Below, in pieces: positions 1,440 to 5,268 of a DNA stretch of 5,268 bases. How positions within the stretch are numbered: the first letter of the stretch is position 1; every line of letters begins with the position of its first letter. This DNA is from a virus. Its lineage: Duplodnaviria > Heunggongvirae > Uroviricota > Caudoviricetes. The stretch is from IMG/VR virus record IMGVR_UViG_2541047928_000011, one strand, 5' to 3'. Position numbers and translations under genes: made by a program. Under the pieces are notes generated by a model that was given only the letters and a program-made list of their open reading frames with translations, was not told the DNA's origin and did no database searches.

Positions 1440-3506
1440 ATGGCAGCAGTAAAAATCTCAGGTGTGCTGAAAGATGGTGCGGGAAAACCAATACAGAACT
1501 GCACTATTCAGCTGAAGGCAAAGCGTAACAGCACCACGGTACTGGTGAACACGGTGGCCTCTGAAAATCCGGATGAAGCCGGGCGTTACAGCATGGATGT
1601 TGAGCATGGCCAGTACAGCGTCACCCTGCTGGTTGAAGGTTTTCCGCCTTCACATGCCGGGACCATTACCGTCTATGAAGGTTCCAGACCAGGTACGCTG
1701 AATGATTTTCTTGGTGCCATGACGGAGGATGATGCCCGTCCGGAGGCACTGCGCCGTTTTGAACTGATGGTGGAAGAAGCAGCACGCAACGCTGAAGCCG
1801 CCTCTCAGAGCGCAGCGGCGGCAAAGAAATCCGAAACTGCAGCGGCATCATCGAAGAACGCGGCGAAAACCTCAGAAACGAATGCAGCTAATAGTGCACA
1901 GGCGGCAGCGACCTCACAGACTGCATCAGCAAACTCCGCGACAGCAGCCAAAAAATCAGAAACCAGCGCGAAAAACAGCGAGACAGCCACAAAGGCCAGC
2001 GAAAAAAACGCAAAATCCAGCCAGACGGCAGCGAAAACCAGTGAGACGAATGCCAAAGACAGTGAAGCCAACGCAAAGGTGAGCGAAACAGCGGCGGCGA
2101 ACTCGGCGAAAGCATCGGCAGCAAGCCAGACGGCAGCAAAAGCAAGTGAAGATGCTGCCAGAGAATACGCAAACCAGACAGCAGAGCCGTACAGATATGT
2201 TTTACAGCCGCTGCCGGATGTGTGGATACCCTTTAATGATTCGCTGGATATGATTACGGGCTATTCTCCGGGTTATAAAAAAGTGAAGATTGGCGATAAT
2301 GTGGTTCAGGTTGCCAGTGATAAACAGGTTAATTTCAGTCGCGCATCAACGGCAACATATATCAACAAATCTGGCGAACTGAAAACGGCGGAAATTAATG
2401 AGCCGCGATTTGAGTGTGATGGCCTGCTTATTGAGGGACAAAGAACGAACTTCTTCCAGAACAGTACAGACCCTTCGAAGTGGAATAAGTCAACTTCACT
2501 GGACGTTACAGAAACAGGCACAGATAGTTTCGGGTTTAATTATGGTCGGTTTGTCGTACAGGATTCGATTGTTGGTACAAGTAAAGCGCATACCATTATC
2601 GGACTGTATTCGAGTACCGGAGGGGTTGATACTTCAGGGGACGAAAAGCATGTAACTATATCCTGTCGGGTAAAAAGTGAAGTTGATAATATCGCCGTTC
2701 GTATTTTATTTGAACATTATGATGGGGAGGTAAGGACATCAATAGGAGCAGCAAACCTGAACCTTACCACCCGCATAATTAGCAAGACAGGTCAGACAAG
2801 CCGTGTTACAGCAAGGTCTGTTAAGGATGATGCAACTGGCTGGATATTTTTTGAGGCTACATTAAAAGCAGATACAACAGAAAATACGGTTGGTGGTTTT
2901 GTCCAGTATTCTCCGGATACAGGGCAGATGGTTACATCAGGGGATTATCTCGATGTAACCACTCCACAGATTGAGGCTGGTACAGGCGCATCATCTTTTA
3001 TTGTTACGGGGACGGCACCGGCAACGCGGGCAAGCGATATGGTGACAGTCCCAATCAAGAATAACCTTTATAATCTTCCTTTTACGGTTCTTTGTGAGGT
3101 ACATAAGAACTGGTATAAAACGCCAAATGTAGCGCCGCGTGTTTTTGATACCGGCGGTCATCAAACCGGAGCGGGGATCGTAATGGGGTTTGGTTCATCA
3201 GGTGGGTACGACGGTTTTCCGTATTGCGATATAGGTGGTTCAGACCGACGAATAAATGAAAATGCCGGGCTGGAAAAAATGCTTATTGGTATGCGGGTAA
3301 AGTCCGAACGGTCCACATGTGTAGTCAGTAACGGTAAGTTAAGCAGCGAAACTAAAACCAAATGGGAATATATCCGGAGTACAGCAACCATTCGCATTGG
3401 TGGACAAACTACAGCAGGATTACGCCATTTATTTGGGCATGTGAGGAATTTTCGTCTCTGGCATAAAGAGCTAACAGATGCGCAGCTTGGGGAGGTTGTG
3501 GAGTGA
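1440..3506 (+). CDS. stf: Side tail fibre protein Stf, mosaic: lambda-like N-terminal domain, heptad-repeat shaft, divergent distal receptor-binding half
   Basis: ORF ends at TGA 3504-3506. The N-terminus (AVKISGVLKDGAGKPIQNCTIQLKAKRNSTT…GRYSMDVEHGQYSV…FPPSHAGTITVYE) matches recalled lambda Stf (orf-401). Start is set at ATG 1440 because GGAG (1431-1434) lies 5 nt upstream; the ORF-track start ATG 1434 has no RBS. The distal half (about 2200-3506) is visibly AT-richer and does not resemble lambda Stf as I recall it. Confidence 0.9.
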   Translation: MAAVKISGVLKDGAGKPIQNCTIQLKAKRNSTTVLVNTVASENPDEAGRYSMDVEHGQYSVTLLVEGFPPSHAGTITVYEGSRPGTLNDFLGAMTEDDARPEALRRFELMVEEAARNAEAASQSAAAAKKSETAAASSKNAAKTSETNAANSAQAAATSQTASANSATAAKKSETSAKNSETATKASEKNAKSSQTAAKTSETNAKDSEANAKVSETAAANSAKASAASQTAAKASEDAAREYANQTAEPYRYVLQPLPDVWIPFNDSLDMITGYSPGYKKVKIGDNVVQVASDKQVNFSRASTATYINKSGELKTAEINEPRFECDGLLIEGQRTNFFQNSTDPSKWNKSTSLDVTETGTDSFGFNYGRFVVQDSIVGTSKAHTIIGLYSSTGGVDTSGDEKHVTISCRVKSEVDNIAVRILFEHYDGEVRTSIGAANLNLTTRIISKTGQTSRVTARSVKDDATGWIFFEATLKADTTENTVGGFVQYSPDTGQMVTSGDYLDVTTPQIEAGTGASSFIVTGTAPATRASDMVTVPIKNNLYNLPFTVLCEVHKNWYKTPNVAPRVFDTGGHQTGAGIVMGFGSSGGYDGFPYCDIGGSDRRINENAGLEKMLIGMRVKSERSTCVVSNGKLSSETKTKWEYIRSTATIRIGGQTTAGLRHLFGHVRNFRLWHKELTDAQLGEVVE
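1794..2162 (+). repeat. Degenerate 21-bp tandem repeat array encoding about 17 heptads (x-A-A-K-x-S-E/Q) in the Stf shaft
   Basis: Protein residues about 121-243 parse cleanly into 7-residue units (AAAKKSE TAAASSK NAAKTSE TNAANSA … TAAKASE). The underlying DNA is A/G/C-rich low complexity, which also produces stop-free spurious ORFs on both strands. Confidence 0.7.
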
Positions 3507-3781
3507 GAGATTTCACGTTGCGTTTCAGTGATAAAGCAGATTTCAGGGCATTTCTCAGGAAACTTAACTGGGAAGAGGACGAAGAGCTGCAGAATGCCGT
3601 TCTGGTTGATGAGATTGGTTTTACGTTCAGGGAGACAGATGTTTCTGATGACGGAGAACCAGAATACACGCGAAACGAAGGGTACTTTGTTAATATCCGT
3701 CTTCTTGACGATGGATTTGAGGATTCCGTGTTCCGTGAGTGGGTGGTTACACCAGAGCGCCCGCTCAGGGAGTGGTTTTAA
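3503..3781 (+). CDS. Hypothetical small acidic protein (92 aa), translationally coupled to stf; possible fibre-specific chaperone or accessory factor
   Basis: GTG start at 3503 overlaps the stf stop (GTGA, 3503-3506). RBS GGGGAGG (3489-3495) lies inside the stf 3' end. Stop TAA 3779-3781. The protein is D/E-rich, has no hydrophobic segment, and has no family I recognise. Confidence 0.55.
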   Translation: MRDFTLRFSDKADFRAFLRKLNWEEDEELQNAVLVDEIGFTFRETDVSDDGEPEYTRNEGYFVNIRLLDDGFEDSVFREWVVTPERPLREWF

Positions 3782-3790
3782 GGATAGCAG

Positions 3791-4084
3791 ATGGATATCA
3801 CGTCGATACTTCATGCGCTTTGTGCCGTGGCGGTGCAGGTACTGGCTGGTCTTTTTACCGGAAACTGGGCTTACGGGGCGATAGCCGGTTGTACGTTCTT
3901 CATTGCGCGTGAACACACCCAGGCAGAATATCGCTGGATTAAGCGTTTTGGTGATGGTCACCGACATAAGATGCCGTGGTGGGGCGGTTTTGATCCACGT
4001 GCATGGGATGTGGCAAGCCTGATGGATTTTGCTGTGCCGGTGGTGGCGTGTCTGCTGGTCTGGCTGTTGGTTAATCGTGGGTGA
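3791..4084 (+). CDS. Hypothetical small membrane protein (97 aa, 2-3 predicted TM segments)
   Basis: RBS AAGGA (3780-3784) 6 nt before ATG 3791. A long N-terminal hydrophobic stretch (ITSILHALCAVAVQVLAGLFTGNWAYGAIAGCTFFIA) and a C-terminal hydrophobic helix (SLMDFAVPVVACLLVWLLV) flank a basic Trp-rich loop (RWIKRFGDGHRHKMPWWGGFDPRAW). Stop TGA 4082-4084. Confidence 0.55.
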   Translation: MDITSILHALCAVAVQVLAGLFTGNWAYGAIAGCTFFIAREHTQAEYRWIKRFGDGHRHKMPWWGGFDPRAWDVASLMDFAVPVVACLLVWLLVNRG

Positions 4085-4093
4085 AAAAGGTGA

Positions 4094-4222
4094 GCAGTAT
4101 ATGCAACGAAGGAGGAAACATCATTGCTGGCGGCATGGAAGGCATGCAGGGTGTTGCTGAACCGTGTTGATACATCAACTGCACCTGATATTGAGTGGCC
4201 TACGAACCCTGTCAGGGAGTAA
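4094..4222 (+). pseudogene. tfa: 3' remnant of a lambda-type tail fibre assembly gene (tfa), last ~40 codons only, no start codon
   Basis: In-frame translation gives …[39 protein letters not shown], which matches the recalled lambda Tfa C-terminus (…[34 protein letters not shown]…). In-frame stops at 4082 and 4091 precede it and the N-terminal ~150 codons of a full tfa are absent. Confidence 0.7.
4124..4200 (+). repeat. Direct repeat copy A (tfa 3'-end sequence), partner at 5173-5249
   Basis: Ungapped alignment at offset 1049 bp: 77 positions with 10 mismatches counted by eye, and a 38-bp perfectly identical core (4163-4200 = 5212-5249, CGTGTTGATACATCAACTGCACCTGATATTGAGTGGCC). Confidence 0.85.
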
Positions 4223-4236
4223 TCATTGGGATTATG

Positions 4237-4269
4237 CCGCAGCACGTCTTAAGCAAGAACGTGCTGCGG
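4237..4269. other. Perfect 11-bp inverted repeat (stem-loop) between convergent genes
   Basis: CCGCAGCACGT (4237-4247) and ACGTGCTGCGG (4259-4269) are exact reverse complements around an 11-nt loop. No U-tract is directly adjacent on either strand, so it is not a canonical intrinsic terminator. It sits in the 54-bp gap between the tfa stub (ends 4222) and the minus-strand gene (ends 4277). Confidence 0.4.
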
Positions 4270-4276
4270 TTGGATG

Positions 4277-4933
4277 CTATTTTTTCCCTGAAGCGGAAAA
4301 CATTACTACAGTACCTTGAATCTTGGTTTTAACATTCTCGAAATGCTCTGAGAGTATATGTGTTAAGCCTTCTTCGGAATCTTTTGTGTTTGAAAAGATG
4401 CCTTTCTGATTGTAAATGCGCATCAGTTTTTGACCGAAGCTATTGTGCACAACGCCGTCACCAAGAATTGTGGCTCCGTATAGAGTTCCATCGTCAGTTA
4501 AGGCCTGCGCCGCATTGCGTATTACACAGCTTTTTGTAGATATATTTCCAGGCAGGCAGTGAAGAAGGTAAAACATGGAAATGGAATCAAATTGACCATG
4601 TAACGCCGCGGGATAAGGATCAAAAACATCATGGCTAATTTTATGTTTAATTTTTGATTCCCCAGCCCTTGTCGATGCCGCGTTCAGGCTAGCTTCGTTC
4701 AAATCCATTAAAGATATCAGACTACTCTCAGGTACGTGAGTAAGGTAAAACCCAGTTCCAACGCCAATATCCAGATGGTTGTTACCTAAATGTTCCAGAA
4801 AGTGTGGAAGAAGGTGTTCCTTTGTAGGACATCCCCATGCAAGCCGATTTGATACTCCCAAAACCCACCAGTCATAAAGCTTTAGGGTAAGTGGTGTGTA
4901 AATTTTAGCCCCATCATCTGTGTTTTTTTTCAT
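4277..4933 (-). CDS. Class I (Rossmann-fold) SAM-dependent methyltransferase-like protein, small-molecule/RNA/protein type rather than DNA MTase
   Basis: Recognisable motifs: motif I LDIGVGTG, a post-I acidic residue (…ISLMDLNE), motif II GQFDSISMFYLLHCLP, motif III LTDDGTLYG. No DPPY/NPPY catalytic motif in the right context and no target-recognition domain. The region is markedly AT-rich compared with J/lom. Start is set at ATG 4933 (GGTGA 5 nt upstream); the ORF-track start GTG 4942 has no RBS. Stop TAG 4277-4279. Confidence 0.8.
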   Translation of the reverse strand: MKKNTDDGAKIYTPLTLKLYDWWVLGVSNRLAWGCPTKEHLLPHFLEHLGNNHLDIGVGTGFYLTHVPESSLISLMDLNEASLNAASTRAGESKIKHKISHDVFDPYPAALHGQFDSISMFYLLHCLPGNISTKSCVIRNAAQALTDDGTLYGATILGDGVVHNSFGQKLMRIYNQKGIFSNTKDSEEGLTHILSEHFENVKTKIQGTVVMFSASGKK

Positions 4934-4945
4934 TAGTTTCACCGT

Positions 4946-5001: not shown

Positions 5002-5268
5002 ATGCTGCCGCAGCATAGCGATATTGAAATAGCCTGGTATGCTTCGATACAGCAGGAGCCGAATGGCTGGAAGACCGTCACCACACAGTTCTACATCCAG
5101 GAATTCAGTGAGTATATTGCGCCACTGCAGGATGCTGTAGATCTGGAAATCGCAACGGAGGAAGAAAGATCGTTGCTGGAGGCATGGAATAAATATCGGG
5201 TATTGTTGAATCGTGTTGATACATCAACTGCACCTGATATTGAGTGGCCGACTTCACCTGCAGAGTAA
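5002..5268 (+). CDS. Small Tfa-like protein (88 aa) carrying only the conserved C-terminal Tfa domain (tail fibre assembly family)
   Basis: RBS AAGGGG (4992-4997) before ATG 5002; stop TAA 5266-5268 at the window end. The C-terminal ~50 aa ([47 protein letters not shown]) match the recalled lambda Tfa C-terminus; the N-terminal ~36 aa are unrelated and far shorter than a full Tfa N-domain. Confidence 0.7.
5173..5249 (+). repeat. Direct repeat copy B (tfa 3'-end sequence), partner at 4124-4200
   Basis: See copy A: same orientation, 1049 bp apart, 38-bp identical core 5212-5249. Confidence 0.85.

Follow-up and report, generated by a model that had tools for sequence, protein, structure and literature searches.

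The stretch of DNA analysed in this study (referred to below as the window; 5,268 nucleotides (nt), IMG/VR record IMGVR_UViG_2541047928_000011) carries the tail fibre region of a lambdoid prophage. On the + strand, the fibre gene stf (1440-3506; its open reading frame (ORF) opens at GTG 1434) is followed by two small genes, ORF92 (3503-3781, phrog_1361) and ORF97 (3791-4084, phrog_1443), and then by a 3' remnant of tfa (4103-4222), which RefSeq lists as 'tail fiber assembly protein, incomplete, missing N-terminus'. The window is 99.7% identical to the right end of a lambdoid prophage abutting potB in Escherichia coli JNEC-KY173. The stf-ORF92-ORF97-stub arrangement is by no means rare: of 5,426 complete E. 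coli genomes, 178 contain 80% or more of the window, as do sequenced lambdoid phages such as ev243 (~96% identity).

An earlier reading of this sequence (the original prediction) held that the distal half of stf and the two small genes had arrived together, in a single horizontal replacement that displaced tfa. All the elements that it listed were present, essentially where it had placed them, including the two small ORFs, both unannotated, and the ~40-codon 3' stub that stands in place of a tfa gene.

The proximal part of stf (1440-2169, + strand) encodes a lambda-type anchor and an alanine-rich heptad shaft. Amino acids (aa) 5-134 of Stf match PF08400 (prophage tail fibre, N-terminal; E = 4.7e-67 in the Pfam scan), and aa 5-161 are 75% identical to lambda Stf (orf-401), with a weaker match along the Ala-rich repeats. 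These repeats show a 21-nt (heptad) periodicity over 1851-2164 and vary in number among relatives (Stf has 690 aa here and 791 aa in 2G7b). The same shaft repeats are present in gp22 of the T5-like phage IrisVonRoten, and it is plausible that they were the substrate for the left-hand recombination joint.

At the DNA level (blastn), homology to lambda was found in three blocks, 1239-1792, 4102-4271 and 5095-5249. It stops at 1792 and resumes at 4102, and the non-lambda DNA spans from ~1800-2200 to 4102. The GC content changes from 0.54 in the proximal part of stf (1440-2169) to 0.45 in the tip (2184-3506; 0.39 at third codon positions); it is 0.47 in ORF92 and 0.54 in ORF97, the latter resembling J, lom and the backbone as a whole (0.52-0.55). 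The expectation of a lambda-like N-terminus and shaft, giving way at about 2200 to divergent, AT-richer sequence, was therefore correct, with the switch lying at ~2050-2200. The AT-rich composition covers the tip and, less markedly, ORF92, but it does not reach ORF97, which had been assigned to the same foreign segment.

The distal half of stf (2170-3506, + strand) was divided into TipA (aa ~250-540) and TipB (aa 541-690, the C-terminal 150 aa); Stf matches phrog_1419 with 1191.7 bits (E reported as 0). BLASTP detected no significant match between Stf and the lambda tip orf-314 (best E = 1.3), and Pfam and NCBIfam scans revealed neither a Tfa domain nor an S74 domain in Stf. Within TipA, aa 332-533 match the head spike fibre domain of gene transfer agents (GTA), NF048003 (68.5 bits against a cut-off of 36; E = 1e-18), and a weak phmmer match was obtained to the R. 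capsulatus GTA head spike fibre 6TB9 (E = 3.8e-4).

Homologous distal halves are present in the lateral fibres of four lineages of virulent phages, i.e. in gp22 of IrisVonRoten, gp58 of the T1-like tonn, gp26 of the rV5-like EmilHeitz and the corresponding fibre of the Nonagvirus JenP1 (tblastn identities of 35-58% for TipA and 33-72% for TipB). TipB alone was detected by tblastn in 204 phage records. IrisVonRoten (Bas32) belongs to the BASEL collection (PMC8594841, PMC11990801), and equivalents of its fibre genes occur in T1-like, Nonagvirus and rV5-like coliphages. According to the BASEL authors, its Gp22 is a proximal fibre, predicted to end in a C-terminal galectin-like domain, and carries the distal fibre Gp24 attached to it (PMC11990801). 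In the Stf of the window, a lambda-type anchor and shaft thus continue, from ~2050-2200 on, into the distal part of a 'proximal lateral fibre', the acquired half consisting of a GTA-spike-fibre-like domain and then a C-terminal domain that is predicted to be galectin-like in a homologue.

The gene that accompanies this tip is ORF92. Its homologues were detected by tblastn in 189 phage records with the same host and taxon profile as TipB, and the coordinates of TipB and ORF92 abut in every inspected case. In the window, the stf stop and the ORF92 start overlap as GTGA, with GGGGAGG located 8 nt upstream. In IrisVonRoten, tonn, EmilHeitz and JenP1 the TipA, TipB and ORF92 homologues are contiguous, and the start of the ORF92 homologue (33-51% identity) overlaps the fibre stop as ATGA or TAATG, so that the coupled start has been kept in five phage lineages.

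Pairwise divergences across 71 unique lambdoid and plasmid loci were compared by Mantel tests, which gave r = 0.74 for TipB and ORF92 and r = 0.60 for TipA and ORF92 (both p = 0.001). ORF92 was intact, with no internal stop, in all 120 alleles. The distal half of stf and ORF92 form one conserved, translationally coupled two-gene module. That ORF92 is tied to the fibre tip, as originally proposed, is supported by adjacency, by the shared phage profile and by co-divergence.

ORF92 is an acidic 92-aa alpha/beta protein (AlphaFold2 model, predicted local distance difference test (pLDDT) 84), which matches phrog_1361 over its full length (E = 1.3e-40). It gave no match in Pfam, NCBIfam or PADLOC, and comparison with PF02413, PF16778 and the Tfa-like fold was equally negative, as was a search of its alignment profile against PDB sequences, which returned nothing significant. 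Judging from the model, its predicted fold is unlike those of known chaperones. The family is small and host-restricted: the 1.84 billion representatives searched contain 103 clusters of it at 50% identity, and a scan of species-representative genomes returned four loci, in Escherichia species and in one contig of a metagenome-assembled genome that is likely mis-binned. An hmmsearch of the 1.84 billion representatives for Rosetta-stone fusions of ORF92 with a fibre yielded long multi-stretch matches to PKD/TPR repeat proteins, which were rejected as repeat-driven false positives.

Its gene position, coupling and co-occurrence make it most likely that ORF92 serves this tip as a dedicated assembly or partner protein in place of Tfa. 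It would most probably act as a folding or trimerisation chaperone, with the task that Tfa has in the assembly of the lambda tip, and less probably as a small subunit, terminal or adaptor. A dedicated partner of this kind would explain how tfa could be lost, and the window contains no full-length Tfa (PF02413) gene after stf, only the 39-codon remnant and an 88-aa chimera (see below).

A different role is suggested by the genes that follow ORF92 in some relatives. Zero or one extra gene occurs between ORF92 and ORF97, and where present (17 of 58 unique lambdoid contexts) it is a distal fibre gene of 234 or 345 aa. The distal fibre proteins encoded after ORF92, namely these two lambdoid types, tonn gp60, the JenP1 'endosialidase-like' protein and IrisVonRoten gp24, share a conserved N-terminus, MATSTVIPGDITTLK, and a conserved C-terminus, ...YGLIAEEVGEIAP..., which we take to be a self-chaperone of the S74 type. 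In the window, no distal fibre gene with this N-terminus directly follows ORF92, as only 9 nt separate it from ORF97. ORF92 could accordingly be a structural adaptor that docks a distal fibre onto the C-terminal domain of the proximal one, giving a branched fibre, and would then be a leftover in the prophage of the window, from which the distal fibre gene had been lost. The ORF92 homologues of IrisVonRoten, tonn, JenP1 and 2G7b do lie exactly between proximal and distal fibre genes, and the N-terminus common to the distal proteins, together with the described attachment of Gp24 to the proximal fibre (PMC11990801), agrees with such docking. We nevertheless regard the adaptor role as unlikely. 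The remaining 41 of the 58 lambdoid contexts, including the window, as well as the rV5-like EmilHeitz, have retained ORF92 but possess no such distal fibre gene; none of the 120 alleles has decayed; and ORF92 tracks the presence of TipB, not that of a distal fibre.

If the distal fibres are indeed of the S74 type, they have no need of ORF92 for their folding. Taken together, the retention of ORF92 without a distal gene, the seemingly self-chaperoned distal fibres and a Stf devoid of Tfa and S74 domains favour the assembly or partner role. Several observations weigh against it. The virulent phages place ORF92 between proximal and distal fibre genes, and the IrisVonRoten homologue, gp23, is annotated as 'tail fiber protein', which makes an adaptor or other structural role conceivable. 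The co-divergence of TipB and ORF92 could result from physical linkage alone, and their identities are not strictly parallel (T1-like phages, ~75% for TipB and ~50% for ORF92; ev207-type, 43% and 63%, respectively). Finally, the ratio of nonsynonymous to synonymous substitution rates (dN/dS) of ORF92 is 0.36-0.53 among close alleles, a value based on very few substitutions.

ORF97, in turn, has a history of its own. Its identity stays at 81-94% in all of 110 IMG/VR loci, whatever the tip, against 33-100% for TipA, TipB and ORF92, and its divergence is not correlated with that of TipA, TipB or ORF92 (Mantel r of -0.14 to -0.02 in the 71 unique loci). Across the 110 loci the spacing between ORF92 and ORF97 takes four values (13, 19, ~728 and ~1,100 nt). 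The virulent phages that carry the tip and ORF92 contain no ORF97.

Homologues of ORF97 also occur in phages with quite different receptor-binding proteins (RBPs). In the P22-like phages Gally and 611R6, a homologue of 75% identity lies between the tailspike gene and int, preceded in Gally by a 240-nt spacer, and the DNA homology of these phages to the window runs from 3780/3781 to 4033. In vB_EcoP-611R6 (3794-4288), a fragment 98% identical to the 3'-terminal 53 codons of the 2G7b distal fibre gene is fused upstream of the ORF97 homologue. As read from the sequence, this joint is direct evidence of transfer from a lambdoid siphophage to the tailspike-int region of a podophage. More distant homologues directly follow the tfa gene of phiHAP-1, a P2-type S74 fibre gene (Leclercia) and the gene of a J-like tip protein (Comamonas). 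Others lie directly after a pectate-lyase spike (Citrobacter) and GDSL-type spikes (E. coli and a metagenome contig), and a 160-kb Salmonella contig carries one between two tailspikes. In total, 10 of 12 sampled contexts outside the lambdoid stf locus have ORF97 no more than ~240 nt after an unrelated RBP or RBP-chaperone gene. ORF97 is therefore a unit separate from the tip and ORF92, and the notion that it is an obligate partner of this tip is contradicted by these homologues, which follow unrelated RBP genes; occurrence apart from this tip is what the original prediction had itself named as evidence against it. The proposed co-occurrence of both small ORFs with the distal half of stf was thus confirmed for ORF92, but ORF97 proved to be independent of it.

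The positions at which homology to relatives begins and ends are in keeping with these separate histories. Compared with the window, 2G7b is 77-80% identical or unalignable over the tip (its similarity being weak or absent over 2066-3781), and its ORF92 has no DNA similarity. Precisely at 3781, where the ORF92 stop codon has its last base, the identity rises abruptly to 95%, and it remains at this level through 5226. Within the lambdoid phages, the tip-ORF92 sub-block, with or without a distal fibre gene, has been exchanged while ORF97 stayed in place, and ORF97 on its own has reached other RBP contexts. TipA has also been exchanged independently of TipB and ORF92: the segment 2451-2936 was swapped without its flanks, and loci with near-identical TipB and ORF92 carry TipA alleles either ~99% or ~62% identical to that of the window.

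Longer blocks have also moved. PhiR41_1, a 108-kb ParA-encoding phage-plasmid with an unrelated backbone, shares 2052-2451 and 2936-4032 with the window at 95% identity, matching both sides of the TipA segment but not its interior. The block 2052-4032 (the tip, ORF92 and the 5' 80% of ORF97) is present at 95-96% in PhiR41_1 and in the IMG/VR locus L021, which indicates that the tip, ORF92 and most of ORF97 can move together. At the 3' end of ORF97, homology stops at 4032, 4051, 4069 or 4077, depending on the relative, and this part of the gene is thus a cluster of breakpoints.

The right junction had been predicted to lie inside the old tfa, and the alignment to lambda places it there, at 4102/4103. 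This joint, the fixed spacing between ORF97 and the tfa stub wherever the latter is present, the block common to the window and the phage-plasmid, and the contiguity of the stf-ORF92-ORF97 trio in hundreds of E. coli prophage loci are all consistent with one acquired cassette (tip, ORF92 and ORF97, each tied to the tip) that replaced the lambda tip and most of tfa. Such a cassette seems improbable, since it leaves unexplained the absence of co-divergence between ORF97 and either the tip or ORF92, the jump in 2G7b identity at the ORF92 stop, the fibre genes inserted between ORF92 and ORF97, the GC content of ORF97, which is that of the backbone and not of the tip, the unrelated RBPs that precede ORF97 in P22-like, P2-like and other phages, and the tip and ORF92 found without ORF97 in virulent phages. 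Of the single replacement originally proposed, the continuous non-lambda DNA reaching into tfa, the single ancestral joint and the mobile block stand; what does not is its unity, because the 2G7b jump, the Mantel coefficients near zero and the inserted fibre genes show that the three genes are not one evolutionary unit. The locus is a nested mosaic, in which ORF92 is probably the partner of the tip and ORF97 is a separate module.

The product of ORF97 was modelled with high confidence (AlphaFold2 pLDDT 93.8) as helices at aa 4-23, 26-53 and 74-96. Kyte-Doolittle windows above 1.6 at aa 1-24 and 74-97 mark two strongly hydrophobic stretches, and the loop between them (aa 40-73) is rich in K and R. 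The family comprises 561 clusters at 90% identity, all named 'hypothetical' in the database; 21 residues are invariant in 49 sequences down to 52% identity (core ...AREHTQAEYRW...MPWWGGFD...), and dN/dS is 0.2-0.33. A Pfam scan of the 49 family members produced sub-threshold noise only (PhoR, Phage_holin_8).

The patch at 3941-3970 (30 nt, + strand), which encodes aa 51-60 of this loop, reads KRFGDGHRHK instead of EMFGHGKRIN; 15 of the 19 differences between the window and the closest genome fall within it. Six of the ten codons are changed, whereas the invariant G54, G56 and R58 are kept. Other prophages in 98 E. coli genomes have the same patch allele, among them one that resides beside a window-type prophage in strain EcPF40, from which we infer gene conversion between co-resident prophages. 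The patch is the most variable loop of the ORF97 family.

The conservation of ORF97, its abundance in E. coli prophages and its constant place after RBP genes suggest a general function linked to adsorption or exclusion. Accessory genes with receptor-linked functions are known beside RBP genes, e.g. cor (phi80, N15, T1), llp (T5), HK97 gp15 and T4 Imm, and the small hydrophobic inhibitors of O-antigen polymerase, epsilon15 gp22 and Pseudomonas D3 Iap, are encoded beside tailspike or conversion genes. ORF97 resembles these accessory genes in being small, predicted to be membrane-embedded, putatively non-structural and located directly after RBP genes. It also occupies the tailspike-int conversion region of P22-like phages, in 611R6 near an O-acetylase gene. 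It differs from them in sequence, which resembles neither theirs nor any PADLOC model, and neither a signal peptide nor a lipobox such as those of cor and llp was seen. By analogy, ORF97 may be an accessory, adsorption-linked factor acting in superinfection exclusion or in the modification of surface receptors, and an exclusion or surface-conversion role is possibly the correct one. An identity of the small ORFs with the Tai/Ati tail-assembly-interference genes was considered and rejected, as those genes lie mostly upstream of the packaging module and show no link to either family (PMC11364771).

Some results do not fit readily with ORF97 as a self-standing, RBP-trailing module. A chromosomal homologue in Aeromonas rivipollensis (6001-6309, 54% identity) stands alone in a non-phage context, and one copy in an Aeromonas phage likewise has no obvious RBP neighbour. 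ORF97 has no match in Pfam, NCBIfam or PADLOC, and a consensus scan of 3400-3800 detected no sigma-70-like + strand promoter upstream of the gene. Moreover, the two or three membrane helices of this small protein, topology included, are themselves predicted from the model. The A. rivipollensis homologue, the one clear exception to the placement behind an RBP gene, is situated between pirin and RIO1 kinase genes, with two lipid A acyltransferase genes nearby on the other strand.

It may also be asked whether ORF92, ORF97 or both are not real genes at all, or are selfish or neutral passengers of recombination joints with no fibre function. The failure of both to match Pfam, NCBIfam or PADLOC models, their 'hypothetical' database names and the coincidence of the ORF97 edges with recombination breakpoints would be compatible with this. 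We nonetheless consider it very improbable, given that both ORFs are intact in more than 100 alleles and confidently modelled (pLDDT 84 for ORF92 and 94 for ORF97), that the 21 invariant residues and the low dN/dS of ORF97 speak for constraint, and that the ORF92 coupled start recurs in five lineages.

As in lambda stf-tfa, one of the closest known systems, the fibre gene lies after J and lom and encodes a PF08400 anchor and an Ala-rich shaft, a small gene begins at the fibre stop (in lambda, the orf-314 end is also the tfa start coordinate; here, stf and ORF92 overlap), and remnants of tfa persist. The differences from lambda are a distal half with no relationship to the lambda tip, an ORF92 that resembles Tfa neither in sequence nor in predicted fold, and the survival of tfa as two 3' fragments only. 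The IrisVonRoten genes gp22-gp23-gp24 resemble the locus in their shaft repeats, in their overlapping stop and start codons and in sequence (gp22 is 55% identical to TipA and 72% to TipB, and gp23 is 46% identical to ORF92). The role of gp23 is not addressed in the BASEL papers (PMC8594841, PMC11990801). In contrast to IrisVonRoten and its equivalents, the window has a lambdoid anchor, no distal (T-shaped or S74-type) fibre gene, and an ORF97.

In the branched LtfA/LtfB lateral fibres of the T5-like DT57C, a proximal fibre likewise bears a second fibre protein, and the tip region is exchanged by recombination (PMC4728585, PMC10713586). LtfA and LtfB fold by means of C-terminal autocleaving S74 chaperone domains, and no ORF92-like gene has been described there (PMC4728585, PMC10713586). 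The Stf of the window differs from them in having no S74 domain.

The tfa stub at 4103-4222 consists of 39 codons and a stop codon. The lambda match 4102-4271 (82% DNA identity to the tfa 3' end) corresponds to tfa from ~codon 155 to ~50 nt past its stop. No in-frame start codon follows the stop codons at 4082-4084 and 4091-4093, and by its sequence the stub is dead. In 20 of 37 unique downstream contexts the stub lies 22-23 nt after ORF97. This spacing is fixed wherever the stub exists, which indicates that the joint arose once, in a single ancestral event. The stub would be a scar, left when foreign DNA was joined to the old lambda-type locus.

A second tfa 3' end, missed in the earlier reading, is located at 5095-5268 (88% identity to lambda tfa over 5095-5249). 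It forms with the stub a 101-nt direct repeat (4103-4203 and 5152-5252, 85% identity), whose arms bracket a gene for a class I S-adenosylmethionine-dependent methyltransferase (4277-4942, - strand). The presence of a second tfa 3' end 1 kb downstream, on the far side of this gene, implies that recombination has repeatedly used the conserved tfa 3' end as a joint. Read from the aligned sequences, the tfa 3' end and the ORF92/ORF97 boundary are repeated recombination joints with breakpoints defined to the base.

The second tfa end is part of an 88-aa ORF (5002-5268, + strand; good Shine-Dalgarno sequence), in which the last 57 aa, a lambda-type Tfa C-terminus, are fused to an unrelated N-terminus of 30 aa. 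It matches PF02413 (positions 75-131 of 131, E = 3.9e-25) and phrog_2341 over its full length. The ORF belongs to a conserved family, even though it is a pseudogene according to RefSeq. Its stop codon is the last codon of the window, and no more than ~230 nt further on lie the prophage end and potB.

The methyltransferase gene (Pfam Methyltransf_12/23/25, phrog_2132; GC content 0.41) has a promoter-like site at 4974-4946 and is a moron found in only 6 of the 20 stub-bearing contexts; its sole PADLOC match was weak (mad2, E = 0.004). Between the stub and this gene, within the lambda-homologous segment 4102-4271, lies a strong hairpin (4236-4269) followed by a T-run on the + strand (-28.5 kcal/mol, z = -4.5 on the + strand; -25.4 kcal/mol, z = -4.3 on the - strand), which the consensus terminator scan missed. 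It is probably a bidirectional terminator, serving the late/fibre transcript and the convergent methyltransferase gene. The 45-aa 'nucleocapsid protein' that RefSeq lists at 4195-4332 is almost certainly spurious; its coordinates extend from the stub across the hairpin into the 3' end of the methyltransferase gene.

That phages exchange fibre tips along with the matching assembly genes, and so become mosaics, is textbook knowledge; coliphages change their host range mainly by swapping tail fibres, and such swaps are also used in the engineering of phages and phage particles. The mosaicism of this locus is thus ordinary; the two gene families, ORF92 and ORF97, are its new part. The literature searched (DT57C, BF23, the BASEL collection, engineered lambda STF chimeras, rV5 proteomics and the PhiR/ECOR13 phages) contained no description of either family, of the obligate tip-ORF92 pairing in five lineages, of an RBP-trailing ORF97 or of the base-level breakpoints. 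Whether both families are new classes of receptor-binding accessory genes, ORF92 a novel type of assembly or partner protein and ORF97 a generic RBP-trailing exclusion or conversion factor, is a tentative proposal, which we hold to be possible but doubtful.

If this proposal is correct, ORF92 would be unrelated to Tfa, gp38, gp57A and S74 domains, and the proximal lateral fibres with a galectin-like tip in lambdoid, T1-, T5-, rV5- and Nonagvirus-type coliphages would depend on it. Chimeric fibres with a tip of this class, requiring ORF92 rather than Tfa, would then have to carry ORF92 too, a gene that annotation pipelines presently label 'hypothetical'. ORF97, a widespread small membrane protein with a hypervariable cytoplasmic loop, would control the surface of the infected or lysogenic cell, or DNA entry, and would trail RBP genes in all three tail morphotypes, from Enterobacterales to Aeromonas, Halomonas and Comamonas.

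Upstream of stf, the window carries the 3' end of J (22-708, + strand) and lom (776-1375, + strand). The interval between lom and stf contains a GC-rich, terminator-like hairpin with a T-run (1402-1423, + strand), which was the sole match of the consensus terminator scan.

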